The notes beneath the pieces are model-generated. The model saw only the letters and a program-made list of their open reading frames with translations. It was not told the DNA's origin and did no database searches. A program made the position numbers and the translations under genes. DNA of 62,417 nt, filler included, from Rhabdomonas costata (Eukaryota): NCBI GenBank assembly GCA_019059605.1. It is 22 parts of 22 records of this genome, joined end to end, with 100 filler letters (N's around TTAATTAATTAA, not from the genome) between each part and the next. Parts side by side here need not be neighbours in the genome. Positions count along the whole stretch, not along the records: positions 36,994 to 39,729 come from JAHMHO010002204.1; 21 more parts are not named here. One strand, given 5' to 3'. Shown in pieces: positions 1,473 to 59,416 of the stretch. Position 1 is the stretch's first letter, and each line of letters starts with the position of its first letter.

Positions 1473-2331
1473 TCACAGGTTGAGGTCATCGCTGGCGTTG
1501 GCGTTGTAGACGTCATCACGTGAGCTGATGCCAGGGATCGTTGAGGACCTCCGGTCATCCTGCAGGATCGTCTCAAACTTGCGAAACTGAGCTGCTTTGA
1601 TGTCCTCCAGCTGGTTCGCGGTGTACCGCGGCACCAGAAACGTACACACGATCCCGGCCAGACCGACACCGGCGCAGACGTAAACCACCCCCTGAATCCC
1701 AAAGCTGCTGTTGTCCAGCAGCGGAGGGAACACGTAGCCCGCAATGGCAGCTCCGATCTTCCCCGAGGCTGCACTGATCCCATGGCAGGTCGCCTTCACC
1801 TGTGACGGGAAGTACTCTCCAGGGATGATGTAGGTCGTGCTGTTGGGTCCGAAGTTGGAGAAGAAGTAGGTCAGGCCGTAGATGAAGATAAACAATCCAG
1901 GGTAGCCTTGCAGGTGGAAGAACGCCGCGGACAGGATCACGAACAGTACCACCAGCATCACGAAGCCCCCCATCTGGAGGTTCCACCGCCCCACCCGGTC
2001 CAGCAGGGCGATGGTGCAGAAGTATCCCGGCAGCGCCATCAGGACCACGTACAGCGAGCTCAACGCCGTCTGCTCCACGGAGGACCCCAGGCCCATCATC
2101 TTCGTGATCGTGGTGCTGAACAGCCCGTTGCCGTAGAACGAGATATCCAGCAGGAACCACGTTGAGGCGGTGCCCAGGATTTGCCGCCACCAGACGGTGA
2201 ACGCCGCCTTGAGGTTCCTGGCGTGGCTCACGCGGGTCGTCTTGGCAACCGTGAAGGCTTCCGACTCGTGCATCTTGGCCCGGAAGTAGGCAGTGGGGAT
2301 CGCTGGTACAGCACCGAAGGCCAGTGCAAAC
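1473..2331 (-). CDS. MFS inorganic phosphate:H+ symporter (PHO84/PHT1 family), 3' exon(s)
   Basis: Translation contains RFALAFGAVPAIPTAYFRAKMHES, GTASTWFLLDISFYG, ALPGYF, FFSNFGPNSTTYIIPGEYFPSQVKATCHGISAASGKIGA. AG acceptor at 2332-2334; TGA stop at 1473. Confidence 0.93.
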
Positions 2332-2735
2332 CTGTTTCGTGTTGTTCATTAGATCGTTAGACGTTCGGATAAAAAATACTCTCATTGTATAAAACGTTCG
2401 GAGCAAAAATCGTGTTCAAGAGAAGCTTCGTAGAAGCCTTTCGGAATTTGGCAGCACCACTATGCTTGAACGTAAATCGGGCTTTTGGCGGATGGGATTC
2501 CGAACTATTAGCTTAGACAAAACCGAACCGGTAACGCACAAACTTGCCTGCTCTGGTACCAATGACTCGAACCAATATAAAGAAACCCTATATTCATCGG
2601 CAGTCATGGAGTGACGGCAAAGTACATAGGCCGGGAAGTTTTAGCGTAGTTAAGGCGTCTTTAAAAGCCAACAAATCGGAGCTCCATTCGAGAAAAGATG
2701 TAATGCAATTGCACTCGGCCGAACCCCCCAACCCC

Positions 2736-2835: not shown

Positions 2836-5800
2836 TGTGTTAGGTGTGTTTAGTGTGTGGTGTCATTGGGTGTACTTGCGGTATTGCTTTCGTGTATGGG
2901 TTTGCTTGTGGTGTGTCAGATGGCTTGTGGTAAGATGCTGCTTTTGGGTGGTGCTTTGGGTGGACGCTGCTTCTTTGGTGATCCTCGGGATGGTGGTGCG
3001 TGGGGTGTCGGTGTCGAGACACGTGTAGAGAATGCATGAGGGGTTCTTGGGTGAGGAGGAACGTACCACCCTATGGTGGGGAGTTACGACGAGTAGGAAT
3101 GCCTTAAGAGGGGTGTTTGATGTCGGTCAGTTGATGCGTTGCATCTCCTTCCATCCTAAATGCGTTTTTCGGTCGCTCCCCGCATGCGGTACGCTCCCTC
3201 ACAGATACAGGGTAAAGAGAAGAAGAAGAAGACCGCCTCCGGCGACTCTCTCACTACGTTCGCTACGCTCACTTCGTTCGTAATGCAGTGGTTCTCTTCG
3301 CTAAGTTAGTACTTAGTACTCTCAGTACTATCAATATATTAAGGCCTCAACTATTGGTATCACTCAGTGTTCTGGTGAGATTTTCCATATACACAAGGTT
3401 CATCTCTGCTAGAAAGAAAAGAACTGTGATGTTCAAGTGGAAAAGTTAGGGTATTTTTGGAGCTTAATTTGCAGTGCGTTTGAGAATGGAAGGAGCTTAA
3501 AACGACATATTTATATCTGAATGTAGCTTACTATACTTTTTGAAGGCAAAAATGTGCTGGACAACAAGCGCAAGCACTAAGTGGTAAATTTGGAGACAAA
3601 GTAGATTAGTTAGTTTGCAACGAAGTAATATTATTTGCTACTATTGTTATTATTGCTGTTATTCGGGATGAACAATAGAAAGTAGAAAGTACTTAAGACT
3701 AACATCCACTGTTTTATTCAGGAGACTTTCTTCATTACGAGACAAGAGGTTTTGATACATCAGTATGGTTGCCGGAATGCGATAAAAAATGTAGTGGTGA
3801 AAATGAGGAACGTGATGAAGGAAACTTCGGTAATAATCACAGGTGAGAAAAATTATCTTGAAGATAAGTTCATAAAGCAAGCGTTCCAGATAATTTTCCT
3901 GAAATGTAGCCAACATGAGGGCATTAAAAGTAGTGGATGGTTAGAAAGTTTTACGCAGTGAATAAGAAAGGTCTCTTTATAAGAGTCAAAGAATGTAATT
4001 CTTCTCACCGGTTCCTATTTAGTCAAGGTGCCGGAAGAAGGTAATTTGCTGACTGGAGTTCAAACTTGACTAATGGGTGGAGAACTGGACAAGGCGGAGA
4101 TCGGAAGAATAATGTTCAGGACAGACCTCAAGATTTTGATATGGAAGTTGAAAGTTACGACATATTCATACGAAGATGATGTCCTTGATGACGATCATGG
4201 GTATTCAGAGCAAAGATCATATGAAGTCCTCAAAAGTAGATAAAGTTGCTTGAACGCAAACGGTTCATGACCCAGCCCTAAGTGAGCAATATCAGTTGGT
4301 CCGTTCAAATTAGGAAACGCTATTAATATAGCATGAAGTTGGGTAGGTAAGCTTTCTGGTAGGCTGATGCCGAGACCTCGGCAAACAACGCCGTTTTCGC
4401 ATTATGTTGGTGATGGTGGTTTTTGTTGAATTTACGCAGTTTGTTGTTGGTTTAAGTGAAGTTGCTCTTTTAGTGCGCATTTTTTACCTTTTATCTTTCA
4501 TATGAAACCATTTCGTTTTGATGGAGTCGCAGTGTGAAAGTTGGACATAATGTGCATGGCTTGGTGTGCAAAGCCTGGGGTGCACAGCTTTTGCAAAGAG
4601 ACGGATTTGAGACAGTTTTTTTCTTAAAAAGACCACACCACCCGAGAAAAAGCAGAATACCAAACAGGGAAAGCGAACACTCTCGGATTGTGCAGCTTTT
4701 TCGTCGCAAGGTTCCAGCTTGATGCGTTAATGGTACGGGGCCACGGCCCAGTTTTGGAAAACGCTTGGTTGTAAGAAAAAAATCCCCGGTTGCTTTGCAT
4801 TTTGCAGATTTGGGTAGCCAAAAAGCGTAATCTGAGCCCGGAGGGCAAAGAAATGGTTTCCAAAGAAGGGGCGGAGTTTTCAGTTTAGATGCGCGCATCA
4901 ATAAAAATGAGCGGGCGATACAACGACCATGACCGCTGGAAGAAAGAGGCTCTCATCAGAAGGTTCGGCAGGTCTACGTTCAGGACTATCACATCAATTG
5001 AAAAGGAAACCGTGCAGAAGTTCATTAAAAAACGAGATTCTGGACGAGAACCGCCCGTTCACCAAGGAAAAGCGGGAGTCCCCGTCCCTACGCGCGCCTA
5101 TGGCGTTTGGCAGTAAGCCTCATAGGCTGGCCCCGACACCGGGGCTCACGGCCACAACGCGCTGTAGCAGGGAGGGCTTTGGAGGCAAAGAAAAGCCGGA
5201 AAAAAGAGAACTTTCCAACGGAGCCCGGGCGGGGGCGGGCAAAAGGTTGCATGAATGCCAAGCGCCGAACTGTCACATCCGTGGGATCTGGCCGACGCGC
5301 CGTACAAAGGAATGTCTATGTCGACCGCGGCCTGGGGCTCCCCAAAAGAAGGACGCACAGGAGAGACCGAGACCCAGGCTGCCAAGCGGGCTCTGGCGCC
5401 TCCTGCTAGTGTCGGCGTCCGTTACGTATCTGCGGATGTCGCGAGTGGTCACGGAAGTCTCGGCACGGGAGCAACGCGCTGGGCTCCCTTCACCATTGCG
5501 AAAAAGGGCCACGAAAAAAGTTCCCATTGTAACTGGGTTGGACGGGAGGCGGCCTGTCTTCCACAAAACCACNNNNNNNNNNNNNNNNNNNNNNNNNNNN
5601 NNNNNNNNNNNNNNNNTTAATTAATTAANNNNNNNNNNNNNNNNNNNNNNNNNNNNNNNNNNNNNNNNNNNNTGCCTCCGCCCTCGCCCCCGCTGGGCCC
5701 CACGGCTGAGTCGGAACAGTCAAGGCAGGTTTGTTCCACTGGGATGCGGGGTGCATTTTCTCTTCCGTCCTTGCTGGGTGGCAAACTGACATCGATCCGA

Positions 5801-21387: not shown

Positions 21388-21946
21388 ATGAGCGGAGCGG
21401 CTTTCCTGGGTTCCAACAAGCTACGTAGCGTGAGTATGTGGCTGTTGCGGGGTTCCGGTCGTTCGTTCCATTCAGGCCGCAACCTTCTGGAAAAATTTGT
21501 TCGCAGCAAGGTGTGTCGGAGTCCTTCCAGAAACGGAGAAAATGGGCTTGCTGGAGATTCTAAAGAACAACCACCACAGAAAAAGGGAATAGAAATGGTG
21601 GGGTTCCTTCTGCAGGCTCATCTCAACGTGGGTACGATTGGGCATGTCGATCACGGAAAAACCACTTTGACAGCAGCAATCACGATGGTTTTGGCGAAGA
21701 AGAACCTCGCAAAGCTTCGAAAGTACGATGAAATTGACAACTCCCCCGAAGAAAAGGCCCGGAAGATCACCATCAACACCACACATGTCGAGTATGAGAC
21801 TGAGCAAAGGTAACTGTTCTGCTGCAGCTGGGGGACTTGAAAGCTGCCACCTCTTGCGTTCGAAGCAAGACCAACGCCTTAAGCGCTTTATGTGCTTCCA
21901 TGAGTATCTGAAAACATGTACGTTGGTTTCTTTTACCAAGTTTCTC

Positions 21947-22003
<57 letters not shown>

Positions 22004-22487
22004 CGTGCAGGCACTACTCCCATATCGACTGCCCAGGACACGCAGACTACGTTAAGAACATGATCACCGGTGCTGCGCAAATGGACGGAGCCATTCTTGT
22101 CGTCGCCGCCACCGACGGCCCGATGCCTCAGACAAGGGAGCACCTTCTTCTGGCCCACCAGGTTGCTCACCCGCCATTACACACACACACACACACACAC
22201 ACAGACACCTGTAAAACAACTTTGCTCGTTGTGGTTATGCAGTGCATCCTAGTTCTCCCGCTGGAAAATAGGGGTTGTTGCCCCTCCACAAAGACGCTAG
22301 ACCTCCCTTGCACAGCTTCTTGGATGTCTTGGGTGCCTTGTTGAGACACGAAATCCAACAGGTTGGAATCCCCAACCTGGTCGTTTTTGTGAACAAGTGC
22401 GACGACCAGGGCGACAAAGACATGCTGGAACTGGTGGAGTTGGAAATCCGAGAGCTCCTGGACAAGTTCAAGTTTGACTCAAAGAAG
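21388..22487 (+). CDS. tuf: Nuclear-encoded organellar (probably mitochondrial) elongation factor Tu, 5' part (core exons 21616-21809, 22011-22161, 22362-22487; N-terminal exons less certain)
   Basis: [84 protein letters not shown] bacterial-type EF-Tu interrupted by GT-AG introns. Confidence 0.96.
21947..22002. repeat. (TTG)n microsatellite in an EF-Tu intron
   Basis: About 18 perfect TTG units. Confidence 0.95.
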
Positions 22488-29822: not shown

Positions 29823-30530
29823 CTTGTTCCAAAGGGAGAGGGAGTAAGCACAAGGAAAGTTGGAAACTGAGGGAAGGAAGGGTGTTGCTGGGTGGACCAA
29901 TCGAGAATAGAAGTCGAAGGGGCACAACCCACAACAAAATAGAAGCACCGAAGGATTCGGGGGGTTCCCAGGAGATGGCAATACAAAAGGGATTTTGATT
30001 AGTTTGGGTGCGAAGGCCAGCGCCGCGGAGGCCAGTCCGCGGCGCGGCTGGAGCGGGTGGATGGGTTGGGGCGTTCCACGGGGTAGGCGATGCTCCGTTT
30101 AGCACCGCTAAACGTCCGAATCAGACACGTTTTTTGGGGTGCTTTTTTTTTAGTACACGGGGGTTAGGTAAACTGTGTCAACTTCCTCTAAATACATGGG
30201 CACAATGGGCTGACCCCAAAATACAAGAGATCAAAACACCTCCACAGGCTCCACCCAGGGTTACGCCGAAGTTCAATGTGGGATGCCCAAAGGGTCAATT
30301 CAATTTCAACAGTGACCCCTGTGACCGATTCAAATTCAAACCGCAGCAAACAATTCAAAAACTCAAGGACATCGCTGAAAACCAAAGCGAAGGTTAAAGG
30401 TCAAGGTGCAGAGTTCCAAGTTCAATGGGACCAGCTCAAAGCTCAGCGAAGGGCAGTTCAAAGTTCAATTCAATTAAATGGCCAACCCACGACACACCTC
30501 AACGGCGGTGTGGGGGGGTGGCAATGGTGT

Positions 30531-33996: not shown

Positions 33997-35265
33997 CGTG
34001 TCCATCACTTTCAAAGTATACTGCCTTGGCGCAAGTGCATTTATACCCCACCAAAAACNNNNNNNNNNNNNNNNNNNNNNNNNNNNNNNNNNNNNNNNNN
34101 NNTTAATTAATTAANNNNNNNNNNNNNNNNNNNNNNNNNNNNNNNNNNNNNNNNNNNNGGGTTCGTACTGAGCCTTCTTGCCCTGTGCACCGCCATTGGA
34201 CGTAGAAGATGAGGAGAGCAAAAGACAACTGTACGCTGTCGCAACGGGTTGGGAGGGGGATCACGGAGCAGTTTACATAAATCAATCAGAAAAACTCAGC
34301 AAAGAAGGACCTCAACGAAAACCTGGCGAATTGGTGTCGCCAACGAAAACCTGGCGAATTGTTGTCGCAAGGAAGACAGTTCTGAGATTGGATTTTGGGA
34401 GGAGGCTGCAACTTCTCTGCCGCGAGGGACGCCCCATCAGTGGCGCCATGGCAATACTCAAATCTAAACCAGCCAGCCTGAGGTCCAATCGTTCAGATTA
34501 ACCAAGCACATTGGGGCATACTGCTACCGATGGGCCAACTGGCAGAATTTAATAATTTATGAAACAAAGGGCCTTTTGTATTTGGAGGGGGAACGTTTTG
34601 CACAGCTAAACGTTTAGCACAGCCAAACGTCATAAATAACCTAAACCTAACCCACTCAGAATAAAATATGTCTCTCTGGGGATTTGCTAGAAATTATTTT
34701 CGCTAAAATCAATGCATTTAGAGGTTGACACAGTTGACATAGTTTACCTAGCCCCATGTCCTAAAGCAACATCCGAAAATGTGTCTGATTCGGATGTTCA
34801 CCATGCTAAACGTTTAAAACCGCTCCTGCAGGCACAAACGTACACACATATTTTTACACTTGGCAGTATGAATTTATCTGGGGAGAGCTCGAGATCCACT
34901 TCACCCCTGGGCTCCCAACTTTTGATGATGGGCCCATTGGGCCTCACACCCTCACACCCTTGTCGGTCCTTGTCCCTCGCTCGTGTCACCTTCCCCATGT
35001 GACCCTCGATCCACAGTGTATGCGGGGACTGGGGAACCTCGAACAATGCATTTAGAGATCTCTTTGTGGGCACCCAACCTTCCGCGCTCGTACACTGCAC
35101 TTGTGGGCTTGGGTCTTCATTCCCACTCCGGGCTTGGAACCGCTTCCTGGTGGACGTTTTTGGTGAACGGACTTGGTTGCCTTACTCTGTCCATGATGGC
35201 ACCTGGACCTCACTTCTCTCCACTCTCCGCTTGCCACACACATACACACACAGACACTCACGCAC

Positions 35266-36893: not shown

Positions 36894-36993
36894 NNNNNNN
36901 NNNNNNNNNNNNNNNNNNNNNNNNNNNNNNNNNNNNNTTAATTAATTAANNNNNNNNNNNNNNNNNNNNNNNNNNNNNNNNNNNNNNNNNNNN

Positions 36994-37037
36994 GGGTTTG
37001 GTGTGAAACGCAGTCTCCTGCGCTTCACTCCAAACCC
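36994..37037. terminator. Imperfect palindrome just downstream of the tRNA (terminator or Rickettsia-palindromic-element-like hairpin)
   Basis: GGGTTTGG-T-GTGAA-A-CGCAG tctc CTGCG-C-TTCAC-T-CCAAACCC, a stem of about 20 bp. It is truncated by the contig edge. Confidence 0.55.
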
Positions 37038-37041
37038 ATTT

Positions 37042-37118
37042 TGGCGCACCCGAGATGAGTCGAACCCCTAACCTTATGATCCGTAGTCATATACTCAATG
37101 CAATTGAGCTACGGGTGC
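37042..37118 (-). tRNA. trnR-ACG: Bacterial-type tRNA-Arg(ACG) with encoded CCA, possibly degenerate
   Basis: Reverse complement GCACCCGTAGCTCAATTGCATTGAGTATATGACT-ACG-GATCATAAGGTTAGGGGTTCGACTCATCTCGGGTGCGCCA (77 nt). The acceptor and anticodon stems pair. The D-loop GG is lost and the T stem has a G-A mismatch. Confidence 0.88.
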
Positions 37119-37124
37119 ACTATA

Positions 37125-37159
37125 GTAAGTTATGTATGACTAAATAGCCAATCTGTCAA
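37125..37159 (-). promoter_or_regulatory. Putative sigma70 promoter for the tRNA
   Basis: A perfect TTGACA on the minus strand at 37154-37159, with an AT-rich -10-like TACATAAC about 17 nt downstream, just before the tRNA 5' end. Confidence 0.5.
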
Positions 37160-37169
37160 GATTATAGGA

Positions 37170-37606
37170 CTAATGAATCTCCACCCAATTATCCCCGGTC
37201 TTTGTCTCCACTATAGTAGGCACGCTTAAAGGTAATGATTTCTCCATAGCCAATTTTATCATAGGTGAGACTATATCAGCTTCATCTAAAGGTACTTCGA
37301 ATAAAAGTTCGTCATGAATTTGAAGAATAAGTTTAGTCTTTAATTGTTGCTGGCTTAGCTTCTTATCAAGGCTAGTCATAGCAATTTTTATTATATCTGC
37401 ATTGGTACCTTGAATAGGAGCATTGATAGCAGCCCTCTCAGCAAATTGCCGCAAATTATAATTTTTATCATTAATGGATGGTACAAAACATTTTCTCCCA
37501 AACAAATTTTTAACATATCCATGTTCCCTAGCGTAGCTTTTAGTGCGCTCCATATATTCCAAAATACCTGGATACTCTTCAAAGTATTTTTTTTAATATA
37601 TTCAGC
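37170..37606 (-). pseudogene. polA: C-terminal fragment of bacterial DNA polymerase I, Rickettsiaceae-like
   Basis: [36 protein letters not shown]...[22 protein letters not shown]...[13 protein letters not shown]...[10 protein letters not shown]-rich and intronless, 5'-truncated, with a frameshift in an A8 run at 37587-37594. Confidence 0.9.
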
Positions 37607-39729
37607 TCTTCTTTTTCATCAGGTCCGTCAGGTTGGCTTCCACTGTGGAGTAGTCCTCCACGAACCTCTGGTAAAAGCCACACAGTCATAAGAAGCTTTT
37701 AACATCCGTCGGGTTCTTTAGCTGCGGCCACTTATATATCGCCATTGAGCTTTCTCGGCTGTGGCCTGATTCCATTCCTTCCAACAATGAAACCACAGTA
37801 CTCTACCTCAGACTGAGCAAACACGCATTTATCCGGATTTGCATATAGCTTTTCTTTATCCAACCTCTGGTATAGCACTCGCAACGCCTCGACGTGCGCT
37901 TCTAACGTGTCCGTGTGTACCAATATATCATTCACGTACGCCCCCGTCGTCTCCCAAAGGTCTTCCAGAATGAAATCCATCGTCCGTTGAAATGTATCTG
38001 TGGCGTGACACAATACAAACGGCATCACCAAAACCCGGTAAGCTCCGTACTTTGTCTTAAATGCCGTCTGATCCACGTGGTCTGGATGTATCCTCATCTG
38101 GTGAAATCCTGCGTGCAAGTCTAACTTCAAAAACCACTTAGCTTTCCCTGCGTGATCAATAATCTCGTCTATCCGTGGCATGTGGTACGAATCCGTGACA
38201 GCAATTGCATTTAGCGGTTTGTAGTCCACACACAGTCTCAATTTACCGTTGGCTTTGGCACAAACAGCACTCCAGCTCCGTAAGGAGAGGTTTCTGGCTC
38301 TATGAAACCTAGCTTCCTCAGCTCCTCATCTTCAGCTGGTGACAAGGAAACTGGGGCTGCTCGGGGGGCTTGTCGCTGGCATGTCCGCTGTCTCGCTCCG
38401 CATCCAACATGCCCGCAGTTGGACAAGTGATGCGGAAGGAATCTATAGCTGGTAACGCCTGAATCTCATATATCCGTCTGCTTCTCCATACTTTAACGAA
38501 ACGGCGTTTCCAATCAATCTGGTGTTGTAGCCTAGTCAATAACGGGTATCCTAGTACCACTGGGATCGCCGTCTTTATCACTCTCAAGAATAGCTTTACC
38601 GGAATTGTACCCAACATTCCCACGATCTTCACGAAATGAGTCACAGGAAGGCCTTCCCCATTGTCCACTCTCACTGTGAGCTTCTGCTGAAGCGGGTACA
38701 GCTGTAGCCTCAAACGCTGCACCACATCTTCACTTATAAAGGAGTCCGACGCTCCTGAGTCCAACAGAGCTCTCACTTGGATATTCCAAATTCACAACGG
38801 CAGAAACAATAGCGGATGAGGGGTGGATGGTCGGGTGGAGTCCCGACGAACCCATTCACTTCCTTGCCCACTTTTTGGAAGGGCAGCACGAAAAGCGGTA
38901 CCGGGCAACTTTCCTTGCCGCGACGGATGCTGTTGACGGCTACCTCCTGCCGTTATTCTAACCACTCTTCCAATGAAGCATTCTCTGAAATCTCTTCTGT
39001 CACAACATTCCATTAACAAATCAACGCTTTATCTTGGGTACAAGAATCACTCGAGAACTTACCTTTGGAATGGCCATCCTTCCACTCCGTTATCACGAAC
39101 AACACTGGACCTTCTCCTGATTCTCGGACCTTTTTCTCGCTTTCTGAAAACTCAGAGGATGTGCTTTGCAACAAAGGTTCCCGTAACCTTTTCCTGGTCT
39201 TAATCAACGCAGGGTTCTCTTCCTTGGTGAAATTTGTTTTCGCTAGGGGAGACTATGCCTCCGTCGATGGACTGAGCGGTCTTCTAATGCCTTTCTCTTC
39301 AACAGGGAGCACATTCATAGCCGATCTATATCATTTCTTCAACTTTGGCTCATACTCTTGACCTTTAGCTCCACTTTTCAAGGTCTTTAGCCTGGCTTGC
39401 ACAACTGCGGGCAACGTCTCTGCCTTTCCAACTGCGAGACCAGAACTCTTTGCAAGCGCTAACTGCGACGTGGTCATCCCCCCCTTGACTGGGGTGGGTT
39501 GGCTTTCACTTCTTTCCTCAGAAGCTCTTTTGAGGATGCGGCTGGGAACTTTAGCTGTGGCGGGCCCAATTGGTTGGACAGGAGAGGTCAGGCTTCCTGC
39601 CCCATCTATTTTGGGAACTCCACTTTCCTTGGTTGTTCTCCAGCCACTGCGGTCACTTGTCTCCGGTTTTACAGTTCCTTTTTAGCCAGTTTACAATCTC
39701 TGTAAACGTGTGCGTGGCTCCCCCACCCC
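37607..39729 (-). mobile_element. Decayed Ty3/gypsy LTR retrotransposon (gag-like region, aspartic protease ~38318-38800, reverse transcriptase ~37610-38310)
   Basis: Protease RALLDSGASDSFISE. RT motifs SPYGAGVLFVPK, LRLCVDYKPLN, DSYHMPRIDE, KLDLHAGFHQMRI, TAFKTKYG, VMPF, and YVND in place of YVDD. Frameshifts are present; no RNase H or integrase follows. Confidence 0.92.
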
Positions 39730-40086: not shown

Positions 40087-42233
40087 GGCCTGGCGATCGT
40101 GCGCCAGCTTGTGACCATCATGGGGGGCACGCTGAAGGTGGTCTCGGTTGAGGGCGAGGGCTCGACGTTCTCGTTCTCGCTGTTTCTCGAGGCCCACTCT
40201 ACAGACCAGGGCCACGCCGGCACGGCTCCGCAGGACGCCGTGGTGCTGGGCTCGAATTTGGGCCTGAACGTTCTGGTTCTTCATTTTTTGTTCCATTTTT
40301 ATATTCAGAGTTGGTGAATGGCTGTCTCAGAGCTTCACTACATCTTACTTTTTGTATGACATTCCACCCCTGCAAGTTTGGGTTCACTGATTATCCTTTG
40401 CTTTTGCATTGCTTTTTTTGGGTGGCGTGAAAAAGAAAATGTCTATCAAAGCCTTCTGCCTTTTTCTGGCGTCTCTGCACGGAAACGGCGTTTCCCGATT
40501 TTGCTGTCAACCTTTCCTTCCCGCATTCCAACAATCATCATCCCTTCGTTTCATTGCCATTCAGTTAAAGCGTTATGAACTTTTCACAAGAGGATCACCA
40601 GATTCAAAATCCTTTTGCCCTCTGGCAGCGATAATGTCCCCACAGGGACACGCTTCCCTGGCTCACAAAAAGGGCCGCCGCAAAACCGACCGACACCTAG
40701 AAACAAACAGTTTCGCAGTAGCAAATGCTCACCAGTTCGCGGAAGAAAAGAACTGATAGACCTAGAAACAGAAGAGAAGCGGCTTCGTGTGCACGTGTGT
40801 GTGTGTGGGGTTACTAAATCTGAAAATGGGTTTTTATCTTTGTCTTTGGTGAGCGACCTTGACTCTCGTTTGCAAGTTTAGGGCCGAAGCGGTTGGATGT
40901 GGGAAGCTGTCTTCGGTGGTGAGATGTCAGGTTCACTAGTTGTAAGCGGTCGCGTCTCCAAAGTCAGCAAAGGATAAAATATAGAAGCAAAGGAAACAAT
41001 GAAACAAGCACACAAGCAAATGGTTCCAGTGATTACAAACAATTAACAGTTAAGATGCGTTTTATACGGAATTTGGTAGTGGAGTAATAGTGCACCATGG
41101 CGGACCTCCTCCTGAACAATCAAACGTTGGAAAAGAAAATCCGGCTGAGAATCGTGTCTTCGCGCGCGCAGGTGGTTGATGACAACGACATCAATCGGGC
41201 AGTGGCGCGTAACTTCGCCACGAAGTTGGGCTGTGCCGTGGAATTTGCTGTGGACGGGTTGCAAGCCGTGCGCTTCTTTGACGCGGTGTGTTTCCCTACT
41301 TTTCCTAGGTAGTGGTGAAATACTGAATTGTATGCGTTATACTCGAAAACGGTAAGAAAAAAGTTGTGCCAGCACCGAAACGAATTTGTTTTAGGGAAGC
41401 GATGTTAAGTAAACTGTTCCGGTGATGAGAAAAATCGCGGACACGGGACGTGATTCGTGATTTACCAACGGGGTACCAACAAACAGGTTGTACTTCCAAG
41501 CATCGCCCCTGCCTGGGGATAGGAGAAGCAATCAAAGAACAGGTAAACACAATAAGTATTTTTCGATGGCACCCCAAAACGCCTGGATCGCATTTTGGTG
41601 GATAGGACGGCATTTGTTTGGGGCGAAGACCAAGTTCAGGCTAAGCAACATCTCAGAGCCTGATGGTTGGTGAAAGCCTTGGCCAATACACAAAAGGGAG
41701 CTTTTCAGGACACGGTGCGTTCAGGACGCTTTGACGCGGATGATGTATTTGCTATAGTAATAGCCGTATATTTGGAGCGGTAGTATAGAGACTGGTTTGC
41801 CCGAGTCTCGCCAGGGTGTTGTTCTTTAAGCAACCCTCTTCCAGTGAACGCATAAGGTGGGATCCCACTCGGGGAATGGACTGCATCTCCGGAAAGGGAG
41901 ATGCTCTTTTCGTGATGCGAAAGCATCTCTTCTCTGCGCAGTCGATTTGCTTTCTTTTCTTTTCTTTTCTTTTCTTTTCTTTTCTTTTCTTTTCTTTTCT
42001 TTTCTTTTCTTTTCTTTTCTTTTCTTTTCTTTTCTTTCTTTTCTTTTCGAAAGGAGCGATCGGCGGTGACCAGTGAGGAAGCTCTAAATTCCATGGGCTC
42101 AGGCAGTCCGCTGCAGTCGGATCCTTGCTCTGTACTATTCACGGGAAGCTCGCTAAGCCCGTGCACGCGGGGCGCGCCCAGCTCCTCACCTCGGGCATTC
42201 CCCTGCACGTCGGTTGACATAGTCTTCATGGAC
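40087..42233 (+). CDS. Hybrid sensor histidine kinase: end of the HATPase domain plus receiver domain (exons 40087-40275, 41172-41267, 42054-42233)
   Basis: [32 protein letters not shown] (G2 box), [43 protein letters not shown] (phospho-acceptor Asp). GT-AG introns. Confidence 0.92.
41950..42048. repeat. (TTTTC)n pentanucleotide microsatellite forming an intron polypyrimidine tract
   Basis: About 19 units immediately before the AG acceptor at 42052-42053. Confidence 0.95.
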
Positions 42234-43070
42234 GTATGCGGATGTCACCTTATCCCTCAACTTTGGTCGAGCGCCTTCTTTTCTAGTTAGCTTCCTTCCC
42301 TTTGATAGGCGGGCAAAATAGACTTAAGCCCAGAGGAATATTGCTTTGATTACGACAGTACTCCGAGGTCAGACGAAACGTAATGTAGTGTACGGTTTAT
42401 TACGAGAAAAACGGGAAAATGTCCGTGTATGTGTGTCTGTGTGTGTAGACTTTTTTGCGCTTTTTTTTCCCGCGAAGGAGTCGGCGTTTCAAGCCTCCGT
42501 AGGGCCTTCAAGCCCAGTTTTGTTGGGGTGGGCTATCCGATGGAAAAATTCCGGGGCAAAAATGTCTACACACACAAACACNNNNNNNNNNNNNNNNNNN
42601 NNNNNNNNNNNNNNNNNNNNNNNNNTTAATTAATTAANNNNNNNNNNNNNNNNNNNNNNNNNNNNNNNNNNNNNNNNNNNNGTGGTGGGTGTGGTTGGGG
42701 TTGTTGGGAAAGCATCAGCGTGATGCGTATTTGTTGTCCAATTGTTTCAGTTTACTTTAAAATGATAACTAGATTTCGTGTTGGTCGGGAGAAATTTCCC
42801 GATCCAAACAACACCTTTCTTCATTGGAAATGATCGGATGGGGTGGCGGAGGTTCAAGATCAAATCAGGTCGAACAGTTCACATCCTACTGTCTCTCCAG
42901 ATCTGAAAAAACCCTGCCCTGGTATGTTCTGGAGACTGGAAAATGTACCCTGTGTGCTGGAGAGGGATGCGAACACTTTGAAGTGCAATGAAGGCTGGAT
43001 TTTTTTTGGCACTCCACAGCTTACTTTGCATGCCTTTTTCTCTTTTCTTGCTTCGTTTGTGTCACTTGCC

Positions 43071-45415
43071 ATGGGCTCGAACAGCTTCAAAGCCGCGCCT
43101 GGGCGGGTTCAGCTTTCTCCTACACAAGTGGGCGGAACCCTTTTGATAGCGCCTTCCATTCACGATCATGTCGCCGGTGGAATCACTGGGAATTTGCTGG
43201 ATACCGCCATGGAGGGTGATGGTTCTCGGCTCGATATACTTGCTGTTCCCCCTTCGATTTGCAAGCCTGACTCCTCTCGCTGCGGTGAATGTGTGTATCG
43301 CATTCCATCAGAGGAAGGAAAACATTCCCTTGGTTCAGACTTAGTACCTACTGAGCTTCCTTTCAGCAATTTGGATGGCTCATTGCCGGGCCAAGTTCCC
43401 CCTGAAGAATGCCCCAGTGAGATTGGCGATGAAGCTCGACTTGGGGCGCTCATCAAGCGTGGTGACGTGAATGGGCTGCGACTGTATCTTTCTATGGAGC
43501 GACCGTCTCCCGATCAGCTGCGAAAGGAGCCGTACGCCTCGATGCTGTACTTTGCCTCACGGCATGGCTGCGTGGAGCTGATGACAGTGGCCTTTGAGTG
43601 GTGCGGGTGGGAATGCTTGGATTGGGCTGGTCCCCTTTCTGGAAACCGTGCTTTACATACCGCCGCGGGTCATGGGCACCTGAAAGCTCTGGTTTGGCTT
43701 CTAGTGCGTCATGGTGACCGTGACCGTTGCTTGAATGTACGAAAGTTGAAGAACAAAGTCGGTGAATCTCCGGTGGATGTGTGCATGCGACTTTCCAGTG
43801 TCCACCCGGAATGCCTCCAGGTGCTCGAAACGTTCCTGGCTTCGGAATCTGGATTAGTGGATAGCGTACCACTCCGCGAAACTGCAGCATCAGCTGGTTT
43901 CTACCATCCGAAGTTCACTCGTTGCTCCACTTCGAGTCCGTTCATCGGAGATCGGTTTCGTATGGTCACCTTTGACGACATTTCAGTCGACCATCTTCTC
44001 GACGGCATTCGACAAGAAGGGTCGACTTTTTTGTCAATCATCCCCGCTTATTCGGAATGGAATAAAATTCGGCAAACGCTTCTGTGCGACGACGGTGCTA
44101 AGCGCAACCCATGGGCCCGCCATCCTACGCCGGAGTAGATTGAGGCGCGCCTGAAGGAGGCCTACTTAAATGGTAGTGAGGAGGAGCTCTACAACGCCGC
44201 TATCCAGGTGTTCACGCTGGAGTCCTTTGTGTCCCGTTCTGTCAATGCTGCTCTGTGTAGCAGCAGCGACGCCGAGGCTAGGTTTCATTTGAGGCCCTAT
44301 GTGTGGCTGCTGCACAGTGCGGTGCGGCGGCTGACGGAAACAATGCCGCACAGAGGGCCGTGCTACTGCTCATTTTCCCTGAGCGCTGAGCTGCAGGGAA
44401 AGTATGCTCCACAGCAAGACGAGCGGCGCAACTTGATATCCATGGAAGGGCTGCTGCTATGCACAGCCTCGGCGGAGAAGGCGGTGCTCAGGCTGCAGTT
44501 GTTGCAGCACAACACTCTGCTGCTGATCAAACCAGGAAATGCGAACGATCCGCGGTGTTGTGGGGCGAAAATTTCGCATATATCGGCGTATCCCAACGAA
44601 GAGGAGGTGCTGTTTTGTTCAGGGCAGCACTTTCGACTGAAAGGCGTTGAGATAATGACGTTTTCCAAAGCTTGTAGTCGTTTGTGCGTGCTCGGAGGAT
44701 GCTGTGATGAGGTTCAGCAGGTCTGCGTTGTTGAACTTGAAGCAGTGGATGAGTTTTGGAGATTTGCCCCTGACCTGTTTGTTGATGATGGGAATACTCA
44801 GGATATTGTTCAACTTTTAGAAAGTCGTCTGGCGGCCGACATCCGGATGCACAGAGATTGTTACTCTGAAGTTGCGAGAGTTCAGGATACCATGGCGAGA
44901 ATTCTGGAAAGTAAAGGAATGCTGGCCGAGGCGGAGGTCCTGTTCACAGAGTCTCTAAAGATACGAAAGCAGCATTTGGGCGAAGAGCACCCTGAGGTTG
45001 CCGTCAGCATGAGTAATCTTGCTGACGTGCACCGCGTTCAGGGAAGATACTCAGCTGCTGGACCTTTGTATGAGGAGTCATTAAGGATTTTCAACCAAAG
45101 CCGTATTGGTGACCAATCTAAGCGTGCTGCTACGATGTGTAACTTGGCAACTCTGTATCGCAACCAGGGTAAGTTTTCGGCTGCTGAGCCATTATTTCAG
45201 GAGGCACTAAGAGTCCGAAAACAAGAGCTCGGAAGTAATCATCCAGAGGTGGCTGTCGTTTTGAGCAGTCTTGCGGGACTCTACCGAGACCAGCAAAAGT
45301 ACTCGGCAGCGGAGCTTCTGTATGAGGAGTGCTTGAAAATCCGGAGGCTGCATTGCGGCCGTGACCATCCCTCCGTGGTTAGTTGTATGAACAATCTTGC
45401 GCTGGTGTACCGGGC
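43071..45415 (+). CDS. Ankyrin repeat + ARTC-type ADP-ribosyltransferase-like domain + TPR (kinesin-light-chain type) protein, with one in-frame TAG at 44136-44138; 3'-truncated
   Basis: Ankyrin: MLYFASRHGCVELM, GNRALHTAAGHGHLKALVWLL, KNKVGESPVD. ART: FTLESFVSRSVNAAL, ISHISAYPNEEEVLF. TPR: ESLKIRKQHLGEEHPEVAVSMSNLA, about five 42-aa units. ORFs 42843-44138 and 44208-45415 share one frame. Confidence 0.85.
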
Positions 45416-46060
45416 NNNNNNNNNNNNNNNNNNNNNNNNNNNNNNNNNNNNNNNNNNNNTTAATTAATTAANNNNNNNNNNNNNNNNNNNNNNNNNNNNN
45501 NNNNNNNNNNNNNNNCCACTCCCAGACCGGACCGTACCAGACCGGAGACCTGACATTGACCTCAGAACTCGAGCTAGAGTGACGGGTTGGAGCTCATATT
45601 TGGTGGTAAGGTAGTACTCCTGAGATGAGTTGGTTGGCCGCTTCCCACCCTCGGACTCCTTCTCTACGCCGAGATATGGCCCCTTCAAGGTCCCATTTTG
45701 GAACTTTTAAGGGCATTTTCGACTTCGCAAATTTTCATGGTCCCGGGGTGCGCTTTTCGGACCTTTGCAGGCCTGCGTACTGAGCCTAAGCTTTCGGCCG
45801 GGCCTGCTTAGCATACCTAAGGGTAGAGCCCAGGAGTACTTCATGCTGGCACCGGAGTGGGCTGGAATGCTTCGGTTTAGAGCCACGCTAGAGGCCATTT
45901 CAGGGCCATTTTGGGGTATTTTTGAGCCCTTTTTGCCTTTACACAGGCTTGCAAGGGCCCTTTTTGGCCCTTTGCAGGCCTGCATACTGATAAGAGAAAG
46001 AACTGTAGGCTGGCGCACCGTCCGCCCACCTGCACGCCGGTGTGCCAGCAGCGATTTTTG

Positions 46061-53500: not shown

Positions 53501-56500
53501 CACACACACACATACACACCGGAATTTGAGGAAACTGCACCGTCCGAGGGCAGCGGCTCTGCGGTGGAGGAGTCCGAACGTAGGCAGCGGTGGTCTGTGT
53601 GCATAAGCCGCGCGAGCAGAGGTGAGAAGGTCTGACGAACAAACGCCGCGAGCTTCTGAAATAAGAGGCTCTGCGTAGAGCAAGCCAGCTCAGACGCCGC
53701 AGGACCACCCCGGGGTGCAACACAGCAGCAAAATAAAGCGAAGGAAAGGAAAAGCGAATCGACGTCATCTCCTACCCCAAAACAGCTCCTCGGGATTCGA
53801 TTCTGTTCCCGTTCATTCGTTCGTTTCGCTGCCAGAATATCTCTAAACCCAATCTCCACGTTAAGCCAAGTTAAGAGTGGTGGGCATGAACCCCCGAACT
53901 CTCAGCGCCCAACCACANNNNNNNNNNNNNNNNNNNNNNNNNNNNNNNNNNNNNNNNNNNNTTAATTAATTAANNNNNNNNNNNNNNNNNNNNNNNNNNN
54001 NNNNNNNNNNNNNNNNNGGTGTGAGGTGTAAGGGGTGCGATAGAAAGGGATGACGTTGCTATTTGCCGGATTGTTTTATTGATTGGTTCATTGGTTGAAG
54101 GAACAAAAGCCGGTCTAAGCATCTCGCAGTCAAACTGGTCAGGTGAAAAACTTTCGCCGAAGCAGTTGGTGCGAAAAATACCAATAATCCCAGTAATATG
54201 TGGGAGCACAAGTAAGAGCTAACGCACAAGTAACTGCTAACCATCCAAGTATCCATACTTTGACCTGTCATCTGTCAGGGGACTCAAGCCCCATGCGTAT
54301 CTTCACTACTAAAGCAAAGCTCTTGTGTCACTTTCCCAGGCAGCCTCTCCTTGTTTTGTGTTTCCTCCCTCGAGGATCTTGGTTTTAGTTGCGCTATGAA
54401 GCTGTGGATACACTTCAGTGGTATACGTTTGGCAGAGATTGGGGCGACAGAGAGAGGTTCTCGCGAAACTTTTTGCCCTATGGGCTGAACTGATGTCTGG
54501 AGTGTGCGCTCCCCGTGGGCACCGGTGCCTGCTCCTAGCACTGCTTCTGCTCGCTGGGGTCGCGGTGACCCTCTCATCGGTGGGCTTATTTCTGACTTCG
54601 CTGCCTTGGAGGCGAGCTTTTGCCAGCTCTTCTGTCGGTGACTTGCCCTTGCCCTTGCCCTCGCCTGTGCGGACACCCAATCAGTCATCGTTGTCCTTAC
54701 CCTTGTCCATGCTGCTCATGACTATGTACCGCGGGAGGGTAACGGTTGGAGCTTTTGTTGGTAACGGCCTATATGACTGTCCTTTTGGTTAAACGCGCCT
54801 CTGCCGGACCCCAGCCCAGTGCACGGTCCCTCCACCTCTCCCACTCATCTTCCACAGACCGTAAGCGGTATTAATGAAAGGGGGGGCCTCTGGCCTCTGG
54901 GTGGAATGCTCTGATCAAGGATCGGCCTCGCCGCCACCACACCCGGATGCGTCATCCCATGGCATGACACTTGACTGTAACCCCTTGTTGAGATCAGTTC
55001 TTTGATGCTGCCACAACTCCAACATGTGCTAAAACTTCTGTGATCACCAGCATTACACAATACTTTATACTTTGACCCATTTAAATCCCTTTTCGCACAT
55101 GCCCTCCATTCGTCGTAAACGTCCCTCCAGGGTGTGAAAATGTGCTGGACTTGCCTGCGCCCCCTTGCCTGCGTCTCTGTCAGCACCAACATTGTCTAAA
55201 GTTGAGGGGGGGAGGGGTGCGAGGCCATTCATTCTTGCATTCTTGCAACGGACTGCATGAAATAACATCTTTTTATCAAAGACAACCTGAATAAAAGGCC
55301 AAAAATGAGAAAAACCGCGTTAATATGAAAACTTATCACAGAAATTTGTCACACCTTGTCTCTTCTCCTCGAGCGAGAAGCCCTTTCAGGCAGTATTCTG
55401 CGACTTCCGGCCTTTCTGTCATCTATCATTTTCACAAGCAACCGTTACCCCTCTACCAAGGTCGGTCCCTTGGATGTTACCATCGCCTTTCCCTTCGGTC
55501 ACATCATCATCAGCAACAGAGGCTGGAGCCACCTCCGCAGTGCAGTCGTCTCAGCAAAACCGCTCCGAACTCAGCAGCGGGAGGAGCTCCACGGAAAGCA
55601 GAGGGTGGATGGGAGTCGGGAGTAACCTCAGCGATGCCGGGGGGACGGTTACCGAGGTCGTGTTTCCGCCCTCGCCCTTCCCCAAGGCGCAGGAGCTCCC
55701 GTTCTGGGCCCTTCCTGAGGCCATCCCGGAGAGCGTCGTGGAAAAGGTCTGTACCCCAACCCCCGATCCTATCCTTCACCCTTGTCATGCGTATGAGACT
55801 TCGATGAATAGACTGCCCCGTCTTGTCAGAGCCTCGGTCCGCCATCCACATCTTCAACGCTAGGAATATGCATACGTTGATTTGGATGACCAGAAACCAG
55901 AAGCAAAAAAGCTCTAACCCCTAAACACTCAGGAAAACAGATGGCCCAATTGATTTACGGACAAACCTTCTCGGTTTCGTTATTTTTGCTCTTCTTCAGG
56001 TAATCTACCCCAACATCCCGAAACTCAGAGCTTAGCACGTGACGATTTTCTCTTTTGTACTCCTGGGAAAGGCTCCAAAAATGCCAAAAGTGTTTCTGCA
56101 GGCGCATAGGACGGATTGTTTTGAGTTGAGGGTGTACCTTACTTTGTTTCATAAAGATTTATGCGTCATCGTCTCATCGTGTTGGTGCTATTTGCCATGT
56201 GAAGAAATCGTTCGGGTTACTAGCGCCAAAAGGGAGAAAGAACAGCCTATTTCAAAAGCGGTCTAAGAAACGAAATGTATGGGTGTCGTGAATCACACCC
56301 ATGCACTTTCACTTTCTTGAACGCGGAAGTGGGTTCGGGACGTGTGTATCCCATGGGTGGGTCGTGCCCCCCCCCCCACACACACACGCCATGCACTCGT
56401 CCTAATGCGGTTATTTAGGCCCGGCGGGTTCGATCCGTCGCAGTGGTGGGGCGGTTCATTGGGCTAGGCAACTCCAACATGGCCCCTGTGCTTCATTTCC

Positions 56501-57747
56501 TGACGTGGCTGGCGACCCTGCACGCCCGGGGGCGTGCCCCGGGGAGAATGGTCTCGCCCGCGCTGAATGTAAGCTTCAACCGATGCAACGGCACGGTGGC
56601 GGGCTGTGCGGCGAGCGCGGAGCACATCGCCACGGCCACCATCGTGCTTGTGGTGAGTTTCTCATCCTTCACCCCTGCACAGTTAGGACCAGGGGAACCC
56701 CACGGTCCATTGCCTCACAGATTATTGCTTCAGCTCAATCCTTTCCAAACANNNNNNNNNNNNNNNNNNNNNNNNNNNNNNNNNNNNNNNNNNNNTTAAT
56801 TAATTAANNNNNNNNNNNNNNNNNNNNNNNNNNNNNNNNNNNNNNNNNNNNGGTGTGGGGTGAGCCGAGTATGAGACAACGCATGAACCAGCGGCGTTCT
56901 CGATCAAGAGTCGAGGGCTCTGCCTCTGAGCTACGGCTGGTAGCTTGACGTCGTACCCAAGCGGTTACGGGGTCAGACTCGAAATTTGATAGGTGCCTGC
57001 GCAGGTTCATGTCCTCCGACGAGGTTCATGCGTTGTCTCATACTCGGCTCACTCCCACATCCTTACGCAACGGCAATGGGCATGCGCTTAAACCGTCTGC
57101 AGAGAGGCGCTGGTTAGCGCCGCCACGGGGAAGCCGCTCGCCACTTCCTGAGCCCGCACGGTGCTGTGGTGAGTGGGAACCACCCGAGAGGCCAGCTTCG
57201 CTTTGCTGAACCCTCTGCCACTGGTGGTGTGCAGCAATGGCAGATTCGCGAGGGGGGCCATCTCAGGGACGGCCATCACAGACCAGCCTGTGAGGAAGAA
57301 ACAGCCATTCATAATGGCCTCAAAGAAAAAGGACGGCGACGGAGATGAAGAACCCCACAACACACATTTCTAGTCCTCGCCTCTATGTGCCTGCAACATC
57401 GATGCTTAGCTTGAGCACGCTGTCATGCCTTCCACTAATCAGCGACATCTCTGAACGTTGACTGGTGCTCGATTTCAGAAGGCAAGGTCCCACCGTGCAC
57501 TGCAGAAAGAGAATTTTTGCGCGGCCGGCTGAGAAAGAAAATACGGAAAAGACGGCCTCAACCCTTGCGCACCTATTGAATCAATGCTCTGTCTGATTTC
57601 TAGTATGGCGATGACAGGCTATATAGCTGTGGGCCGGTGAATGGGAATGGAAATGGGAATGGGAATGAGAATGGGAGTGAGTCCGTGAGAGAGTGAGTGA
57701 GTGAGTGAGTGTGTGTGTGTGTGTGTGTTTGGCTGAGGTAACACACC

Positions 57748-59416
57748 TGGGTGAGGGTGGCCTTGAGCGGTGAGCACAAGATCCTCCCCGCTAGCTCCGG
57801 TGTAGTTCCGGGCCAGCCTGACCACGGTGACCTGCTTCGTCAACTCCATCACCACCCCAAGCACCACCGCAGTGGGGGTGAGGGCGCCGTACTGCACCGC
57901 CCCACCAAAGTCCAGGCCCCCGGAGGGGTACGCGGGGTCCAGCAGCCCCGTGGCCGAGCGGAAGACAAGCATGGGCTCCGGGCCGGCGTACACCCGCCCG
58001 TATTCCGTGTCGGAGAGCACGAAGGCGAAGCGCACCGCGAAAGTCCCCATCTTTACCTGTCGGGTGAGGGCCGTTGAGGCACTTTTGGATGATTGAGTCA
58101 GTGGGGGAGAATCAAAATGAATGAGTGGGTGCACGGGTTCCGGACTTTGAGCCCAACGTTTTCAAGGCTCATGGCGATGATCCACAATGCGCCCCCTCCT
58201 CCATGAAGTCGAGCAGACCTTCTGTTTGATTTTGGGGGCGCCAAGGTCCCGTCCCCATCTCCAGTTTCATTCATTTTGGCTCGGTGGTGGACGAACGTTT
58301 AGCGTGTCACTGCTGGTGTTGAAAACCTCAATGGATGGCCATTCGCCATTCGGAAGCAGCTGTGATTTCCCACGGGTCCCCCTTACATACCGCTGTACTT
58401 CAACGTGTGTTACAAAACTCAGTGATCATTTTTCATACTTACCAAGTTTACTATATTTATTTTCCATATTCGGTGTTTTTTGGCATGCGTGTGTTATTTG
58501 CCAGTGTTGGGAAAGCTGATGGAACTACAGGCAATTAATGCTTTGCATTACAATGAATCCTTCCGCCCCTACTATTTTCAATACACACCACGGACAGTTT
58601 TTGAATACAACCTGTGACCAAACTCTGTGATCTTTTTTTTCATATTTTCGGGGGTTTTCTCATTTTGGCCTTTTATTGAGGTTGTCTTTGCTAAAAGGGT
58701 GTCTTTTCCAAGCAGTTCGTGGCCCGGATGCAATAGAGGAAAGCTCGCACCCCCATCAGATTCACACAATGTTGGTGATGAAAGAGGTCTTGTCTTTTTA
58801 CCGGGGGAAGGGAGCGCGGGCAGCTCCAACAGAGTTTCCCACCCTGTAGGGATGCCGTCTAAGGCAAATGGAGGGCCAATGCAAAAAGGGAATTAAATGG
58901 GCCAAAGTAGTAGTGTATATATAGTGGTTATCCCAGAGGTTTTGGCACATGTTGCTCTTGTGTCACGAGTCTGCGTCGTGAGCTCAGAAATGTTCCCGAA
59001 TTGCTCCAGCCAGCCCACCCGTCGTTCTCACCATTTAGTTGTGAAGTGATGCCCTCCTGAAACCCAATAAAAAACAGGTCAAAGGAATAGCAGCTTGTGA
59101 GTCTTGACAATTTTCAGTGCCTCTGTGGGACACGTTGGGACTTTCCAGCGCACCAGTTGGTTTCCTTTGCCTTCTCACACCATGATTAGAAACTCATGTA
59201 CAGGCTGCTTTAAACAAATGTGCACTTTGCCACAGGCCAAGGGGCAAACCCAGCCCGACCCGAGCTGAAAGGGGAAATGAGGGATCGCACGGCGACCTCT
59301 CGGGACAGGGAGAGATTGGTGCTCACTGTGATGAAGTTGTTCTTTTCGCGGCACAGAGGTTCGAGGTACTCGTCGGCACACCGCTCGCAGCTCAGGCCGC
59401 TCCAGTATCCGTTGTC
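57748..59416 (-). CDS. Large extracellular protein with a laminin-type EGF-like module, internal exons (59327-59416, ~58967-59056, ~57748-58056)
   Basis: Exon DNGYWSGLSCERCADEYLEPLC fits GYWxGxxCxxCxxxYxxxxC. Downstream GC3-rich exons are AG/GT-bounded. Confidence 0.55.

Follow-up and report, generated by a model that had tools for sequence, protein, structure and literature searches.

Rickettsial DNA from the Trichoplax genome project is the closest precedent for the locus described here. As the scaffold accounts given in PMC3641634 have it, a Rickettsiales endosymbiont was sifted from the Trichoplax adhaerens assembly; 93% of the bacterial coding sequences were on small scaffolds, and the proposal of transfer was confined to 12 located on large eukaryotic scaffolds. 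The introduction of that paper also cites transfers from Wolbachia to the host nucleus. The present locus lies in a 62,417-nucleotide (nt) stretch of DNA, hereafter the window, from Rhabdomonas costata (NCBI GenBank assembly GCA_019059605.1), and consists of a bacterial piece with the 3' end of polA, a tRNA-Arg(ACG) gene and a hairpin, fused to a degenerate retroelement of the Ty3/gypsy type. The evidence indicates that the bacterial piece, 613 nt long, is authentic genome sequence from an as yet undescribed member of the Rickettsiaceae living in or with the sequenced eukaryote; at a probability of roughly 0.58, the fusion is read as a chimera involving DNA of a live associate and not as a feature of the host chromosome.

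The window is made up of 22 pieces of 2732-2864 nt each, roughly sorted by size and split by 21 identical spacers; any feature that spans a spacer is artificial. The bacterial piece belongs to piece 14 (JAHMHO010002204.1), a 2736-nt contig at 36994-39729 that begins directly after the artificial 100-nt spacer at 36894..36993 (44 N, then TTAATTAATTAA, then 44 N). It forms the terminal 613 nt of this contig and starts at the contig's first base, 36994, with a single junction visible; host sequence flanks it on one side only, where an integrant would have host sequence on both, and the contig stops at 36994, in or at the bacterial hairpin. An earlier note on this DNA had described a polA 3' end, a tRNA-Arg with encoded CCA, a hairpin and a join to a gypsy element, and all of these parts were confirmed by Pfam, ARAGORN, Rfam, folding and protein alignments.

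The polA fragment (37170..37606, minus strand) encodes the last part of the polymerase domain of DNA polymerase I. The open reading frame (ORF) at 37170-37592 on the minus strand matches Pfam DNA_pol_A (PF00476) over profile positions 242-380 of 381 (E 5.8e-51), ends in a stop codon at 37170-37172 and keeps the QIHDELLFE motif. Only ~148 of ~883 codons are present; the first ~735 codons and the start are absent, and the uninterrupted 5' nuclease, 3'-5' exonuclease-like and polymerase domains of a complete gene are not found. The frame is shifted by +2 in a run of 8 A at 37587-37594 (minus strand), where the nearest protein relative, P0001, reads IKKYF and 6 A are needed; the fragment has two A extra, which bears out the frameshift claimed in the earlier note, and these could be either a homopolymer miscall or real slippage. 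Apart from this run the fragment is well conserved: measured against 120 relatives, it deviates at none of the 40 columns conserved at 98%, none of the 61 at 95% and none of the 69 at 90%, and at 2 of the 79 conserved at 80%, where the relatives' median is also 2. Seven differences separate it from P0001, every one in a variable column; about 5 of the 7 are specific to the window when compared with outgroups, and a single transition explains each (codons judged by inspection). The GC content of the fragment is 34.6%, with 30% at third codon positions, and the corresponding values for L001, the contig with the closest polA locus among the genome matches, are 34.8% and 30%. Constraint on polA therefore appears intact with no sign of drift toward host composition, and its differences have the look of what normally accumulates when a living bacterium diverges under selection.

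The origin of the bacterial DNA was traced in a collection of contigs holding one genome per species, in which 194 of 329 pattern matches encode relatives. The best 20 polA loci are 63-73% identical to the fragment, 18 of them named Rickettsia, Tisiphia or Rickettsiaceae and two being metagenome-assembled genomes (MAGs) with other labels; beyond these 20, identity does not exceed 51% (Pelagibacterales, Chloroflexota and others). The best match in a scan of metagenome contigs is 72% identical. A large protein collection holds closer sequences, namely P0001 at 95% (a full-length PolA of 883 amino acids), P0002 at 81% and P0003 at 78%, followed, among the 120 proteins listed, by Tisiphia, Trichorickettsia and Rickettsia proteins at no more than 73%; neither P0001 nor P0002 was recovered as DNA in the genome or metagenome contig scans. 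Within the same GTDB family, 121 of 130 scored genomes gave a polA match, none above 73%. In a FastTree phylogeny of the last 390 residues with 27 relatives, of whose columns the window sequence fills only 36%, the window polA is sister to P0001 with a support of 97; P0002, P0003 and Trichorickettsia mobilis join the pair at a weak support of 86, and among named sequences Trichorickettsia is the nearest neighbour. The Rickettsiaceae origin put forward in the earlier note is borne out by the agreement of protein matches, family genomes and tree, and on these sequence comparisons the bacterial DNA is assigned to that family. From the identity of at most 73% to the scored genomes and from the tree position it follows that the donor is, by the same comparisons, a lineage with no sequenced representative among the 130 scored family genomes; it is probably a cytoplasmic symbiont near the Trichorickettsia-type symbionts of protists. 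No protein named Megaira, the type of symbiont brought up in the earlier note, occurs among the 120 listed, and a literature search pairing Rickettsiaceae with Ichthyosporea returned nothing relevant.

The tRNA-Arg(ACG) gene (37042..37118, minus strand) is of bacterial type, with the cloverleaf, the anticodon ACG and the encoded CCA all present. Its Rfam tRNA score is 48.9 bits, where the gathering score is 29; the tRNA-Arg(ACG) copies of relatives score 63.0 and 62.7 bits, ~14 bits higher. The copies at loci L081-L083, one labelled Tisiphia and two Rickettsia, are identical among themselves, and the window copy differs from them at exactly 3 of 77 positions: G19 to C, A21 to T and C62 to A, the last of which produces a G.A mismatch in the T stem. 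The earlier note had seen a loss of the D-loop GG, here the change at G19, and the T-stem mismatch, both of which are real, and the change at A21 is now added to them. Every one of the changes is a transversion and affects a site at which 6 of 6 relatives agree; the copy keeps neither the full set of conserved tertiary-contact bases (G18-G19, A21) nor complete pairing of the T stem. The anticodon stem carries a U-A pair which, unlike the pair in L001, is the family consensus.

Were the sequence accurate throughout, it could come from a live bacterium that tolerates the poly(A) frameshift in polA through slippage and whose tRNA-Arg copy is either degenerate or a second one; even then the retroelement join would be an artefact. 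Poly(A) frameshifts rescued by polymerase slippage are known from insect endosymbionts, polA is otherwise perfectly conserved, and the tRNA keeps its consensus U-A pair and is still called by ARAGORN and Rfam; however, the tracts known as slippage-prone are longer than 8 A, and a normally single essential tRNA could hardly tolerate losing both G19 and A21 along with a T-stem pair, the more so at sites that the 6 relatives hold invariant across genera. Such an origin is considered improbable.

The spacer between polA and the tRNA gene (37119..37169, minus strand) is 51 nt long and AT-rich (GC 29%), and contains a -35-like box, TCTTGACA, with a weak -10; the box, upstream of the tRNA, aligns with a box in L001. 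The TTGACA promoter proposed for this region in the earlier note holds as far as the hexamer, which is a perfect -35 element; a consensus scan of 36994-37700 found no promoter-like or terminator-like site. The natural order of the two genes, also proposed there, is plausible because L001 too has tRNA-Arg(ACG) downstream of polA, 1.1 kb away with two small ORFs between; the adjacency is supported by this one relative only, being seen at 1 of 19, 0 of 4 and 1 of 6 loci scanned, the last of these on the same contig as L001. The L001 contig (also L169, in G046) is itself unusual, as it is 5.7 kb long, carries a Rickettsiaceae-type PolA with the tRNA-Arg(ACG), and is labelled as a MAG of Janthinobacterium lividum; it was also returned by a search confined to the family of G001, and is probably mislabelled or mis-binned in the source record.

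Directly 3' of the tRNA is an imperfect hairpin (36994..37037, minus strand) with a 20-pair stem and one A.A mismatch, the outer base of which is the last base of the contig. It begins four bases past the tRNA and folds with -32.7 kcal/mol (z -6.73), a stability reached by 0 of 200 shuffles; its arms match only each other within the window. A GC content of 52% led to its being considered as host flank; short hairpins follow tRNA-Arg in relatives too (alignment read by eye), which favours a bacterial terminator, and the structure is probably a terminator stem of this kind. No T-run is visible after it because the contig ends there.

The lesions in the two genes bear on how the join is interpreted. 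The earlier note took three of them to favour a decaying nuclear insertion, and a recent true insertion is indeed the strongest competitor of the chimeric join: a fragment of a symbiont chromosome would have been end-joined into a dead gypsy copy, would now be non-functional and would be starting to decay through slippage in the A-run and substitutions in the tRNA. Damage to two essential genes, a +2 shift in 8 A in one and changes at three invariant sites in the other, is in line with such an insertion. The distribution of the damage speaks against it, however, as it is concentrated in the 77-nt tRNA adjoining the contig end, consists there of transversions only and lies 49-125 nt from that end, while polA shows neither relaxed constraint nor a shift in composition. 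If decay were uniform at 3 changes per 77 nt, the 420 nt of polA should hold about a dozen replacement changes, with about half in constrained columns, and none is found there; uniform neutral decay is, on a rough estimate, left with next to no chance. A positional error gradient fits better than uniform decay with three changes in the tRNA and none at constrained polA sites, and the tRNA changes look more like sequencing error than mutation. An inference of a decaying nuclear insertion from the lesions alone is thus not supported as it was argued.

The retroelement part (37609..39729, minus strand) is a degenerate fragment comprising a protease, a reverse transcriptase (RT) and the start of the RT-RNase H connection. 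Pfam places RVT_1 (E 1.9e-25) and RVP_2, a retroviral protease family (E 1.9e-07), within it, and the protease-then-RT order with a connection region of the gypsy type identifies it as Ty3/gypsy. Its nearest relatives are metagenome polyproteins, 58-71% identical, the matches being spread over three frames; an in-frame TGA stands in place of a conserved glycine, giving FL-stop-LCGF vs FLGLCGF in relatives. The GC content is 49%. RNase H, integrase and an open frame are all missing and the element is truncated at 37608, so it is not an intact copy; no long direct repeat or long terminal repeat (LTR) was found in the contig at 36994-39729. That the flanking copy is itself dead accords with the insertion of symbiont DNA described above.

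The two parts meet in a purine-rich zone (37606..37611, minus strand; GAAGAG), a few bases of which can be assigned to either parent. Retroelement homology runs through PLTDLMKKK to 37608, where relatives go on with (K/G/W)(D/E)W.W, and polA homology begins with AEYIKK at 37606, the preceding residues KRR not being those of polA; the direct junction with the gypsy element described in the earlier note is thereby located. In each parent the break falls within a domain, near codon 735 of 883 in polA and between RT and RNase H in the retroelement, and the microhomology would, judged from the two alignments, extend over at most a handful of shared bases. Little or no homology is compatible with the end-joining expected of a nuclear insertion; a co-ligated clone, an amplification chimera and end-joining in vivo account for the junction equally well.

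The layout has also raised the possibility of capture by the retroelement, in which the gypsy RT would have switched template to a cytoplasmic read-through transcript of bacterial polA and tRNA and the hybrid cDNA would have integrated. Members of the Rickettsiaceae live free in the host cytoplasm; the order on one strand, from the 5' retroelement pol through the polA 3' end and the tRNA with its CCA to the hairpin, and a switch point in a purine-rich run with possible microhomology are as this route would produce them. Against it, any random join gives the same layout, direct evidence is lacking, and no second junction, target-site duplication, LTR or further copy is visible; capture of this kind is considered very improbable.

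The chimeric join remains the preferred interpretation because the bacterial piece is terminal, read-sized (at 613 nt it is no longer than one Sanger-type read), one-sided and undecayed where this can be measured, and because its lesions resemble end-of-contig errors. A chimeric clone, read or amplification product would have been extended by the assembler into reads of the retrotransposon; contigs of purely bacterial sequence would have been removed by contaminant screens, and the chimera would have survived as it is mostly eukaryotic. The tRNA changes, and probably the length of the A-run too, would be base-calling errors on a thinly covered contig end. The amplification chimera that the earlier note kept as an alternative has in this way become the favoured reading, although it is inferred, and a nuclear insertion retains a real if clearly smaller share of the probability. 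Under either of these the bacterial piece does nothing in the host, because polA is missing its first ~735 codons together with any start, and the tRNA gene is bacterial.

Several points weigh against an artefact and should be set beside this. Thin coverage, base-calling errors and the chimera itself have been arrived at indirectly, unlike the identity, origin and anatomy of the parts, which were observed. A neighbouring host contig reads cleanly over an exon of 283 amino acids, and good-quality host sequence of this sort favours an insertion, as the assembly is not poor overall; any poor quality would therefore be local to this contig end, where a single overhanging read would be expected to produce it. 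Inserted DNA without a function would collect exactly such a frameshift and such tRNA damage, and a very recent insertion would likewise leave polA looking healthy. Some change after transfer is allowed for by the 5% amino-acid distance to the closest live relative known, and the end branch of the window sequence is 0.046 vs 0.014 for P0001, over only 140 columns. Symbiont DNA, once integrated, is often found in repeats. Comparable claims have also been made for other hosts, such as the transfers proposed for Trichoplax in PMC3641634. Set against an insertion are the single visible flank and the position of the piece at the end of an unplaced 2.7-kb contig; furthermore, self-BLAST of the window found no second copy of either the bacterial or the retroelement part in the other 21 contigs, and no other bacterial piece was seen there among the ORFs scanned with Pfam, though these contigs amount to no more than 57 kb of the genome. 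A real join would mean that a protist-like eukaryote had very recently taken a piece of the chromosome of an undescribed cytoplasmic Rickettsiaceae symbiont into a nuclear gypsy element, possibly by RT template switching onto a bacterial transcript; this is judged less likely than not.

The remaining pieces of the window, which has an overall GC content of 51%, are eukaryotic-looking and include an exon of a PHS-type phosphate transporter, an EF-Tu-type GTPase, and TPR, ankyrin and Sel1 repeat ORFs. Further bacterial pieces were sought by a Pfam scan of 94 of the 258 ORFs of at least 90 amino acids, comprising longer ones picked by eye (roughly at least 125 amino acids) and two ORFs in an AT-rich island at 3662-3958; those 94 ORFs gave only eukaryote-type or weak matches and no further bacterial piece. 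The PHS-type transporter is a clean exon of 283 amino acids at 1476-2345 (minus strand); its best matches are metagenome and protist-transcriptome proteins at 73% and 62%, an Ichthyophonus-labelled protein at 58% and one of Chromera velia at 45%, which points to a protist-like host of a little-sampled kind. The EF-Tu GTPase domain at 21616-22176 (plus strand) is of bacterial or mitochondrial type and lies in two frames separated by ~200 nt (Pfam positions 2-68 in one, 69-124 in the other); it looks like a nuclear gene for an organellar EF-Tu with an intron. A long ORF at 42834-45416 (plus strand) contains ankyrin and TPR_10/TPR_12 (NPHP3-like) repeats and a single in-frame TAG at 44136-44138, which could mean that the ORF is a pseudogene, that the codon is an error, or that two genes are separated by a real stop. 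ARAGORN calls a tRNA-Ser(CGA) at 56946-57025 (plus strand) on another contig. Two contigs have a 372-nt stretch in common (55009-55359 and 58607-58965; 72% identity, opposite orientation), which is probably a dispersed host repeat; a weaker match of 108 nt links 30096-30197 and 34712-34812. Low-complexity, coding-like KEKKR repeats, purine-rich and with a period of ~15 nt, occupy 41826-42138 (minus strand).

The fragment is a cheap marker that a eukaryote carried, or was sequenced with, a Rickettsiaceae bacterium of a lineage absent from the 130 scored genomes, and as such it is useful to students of protist symbioses. It also provides a caution, in that lateral gene transfer should not be claimed, unless reads support it, for bacterial DNA that sits at the end of a contig and has its lesions only near there. 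Were the join real, a transfer from symbiont to nucleus in a protist would have been caught almost in the act, adding one more host group to those with recent symbiont insertions; the understanding of such insertions would be unchanged.

Compared with known systems, the retroelement part resembles Ty3/gypsy elements in its protease-then-RT order and in the connection motif FLGLCGFYQRF...PLTDLMKKK; unlike an intact element, the copy ends before RNase H and integrase, contains an in-frame stop and changes of frame, and has no LTR in view. The bacterial genes resemble the PolA and tRNA-Arg(ACG) of Rickettsiaceae (Rickettsia, Tisiphia, Trichorickettsia mobilis), with the columns conserved at 90% or more intact and 74 of 77 tRNA positions identical to the family consensus; the spacer between them is 51 nt, vs ~1.1 kb with two ORFs in L001. 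Nuclear insertions of the Wolbachia type, as cited in the introduction of PMC3641634, would be matched, if the join is real, by a promoterless, truncated, non-functional symbiont fragment that lies by repeats and has a frameshift; the present case differs from them in that polA bears no sign of decay or shift in composition and is known from a one-sided contig alone. The likeness to the Trichoplax case, as told in PMC3641634, is that Rickettsiales sequence turns up in the assembly of a eukaryote, for the most part on small scaffolds, and prompts the same three-way question of contaminant, symbiont or lateral gene transfer; here, unlike in Trichoplax, the sequence amounts to one fragment of 613 nt joined to a retrotransposon, and it comes from a member of the Rickettsiaceae near Trichorickettsia.

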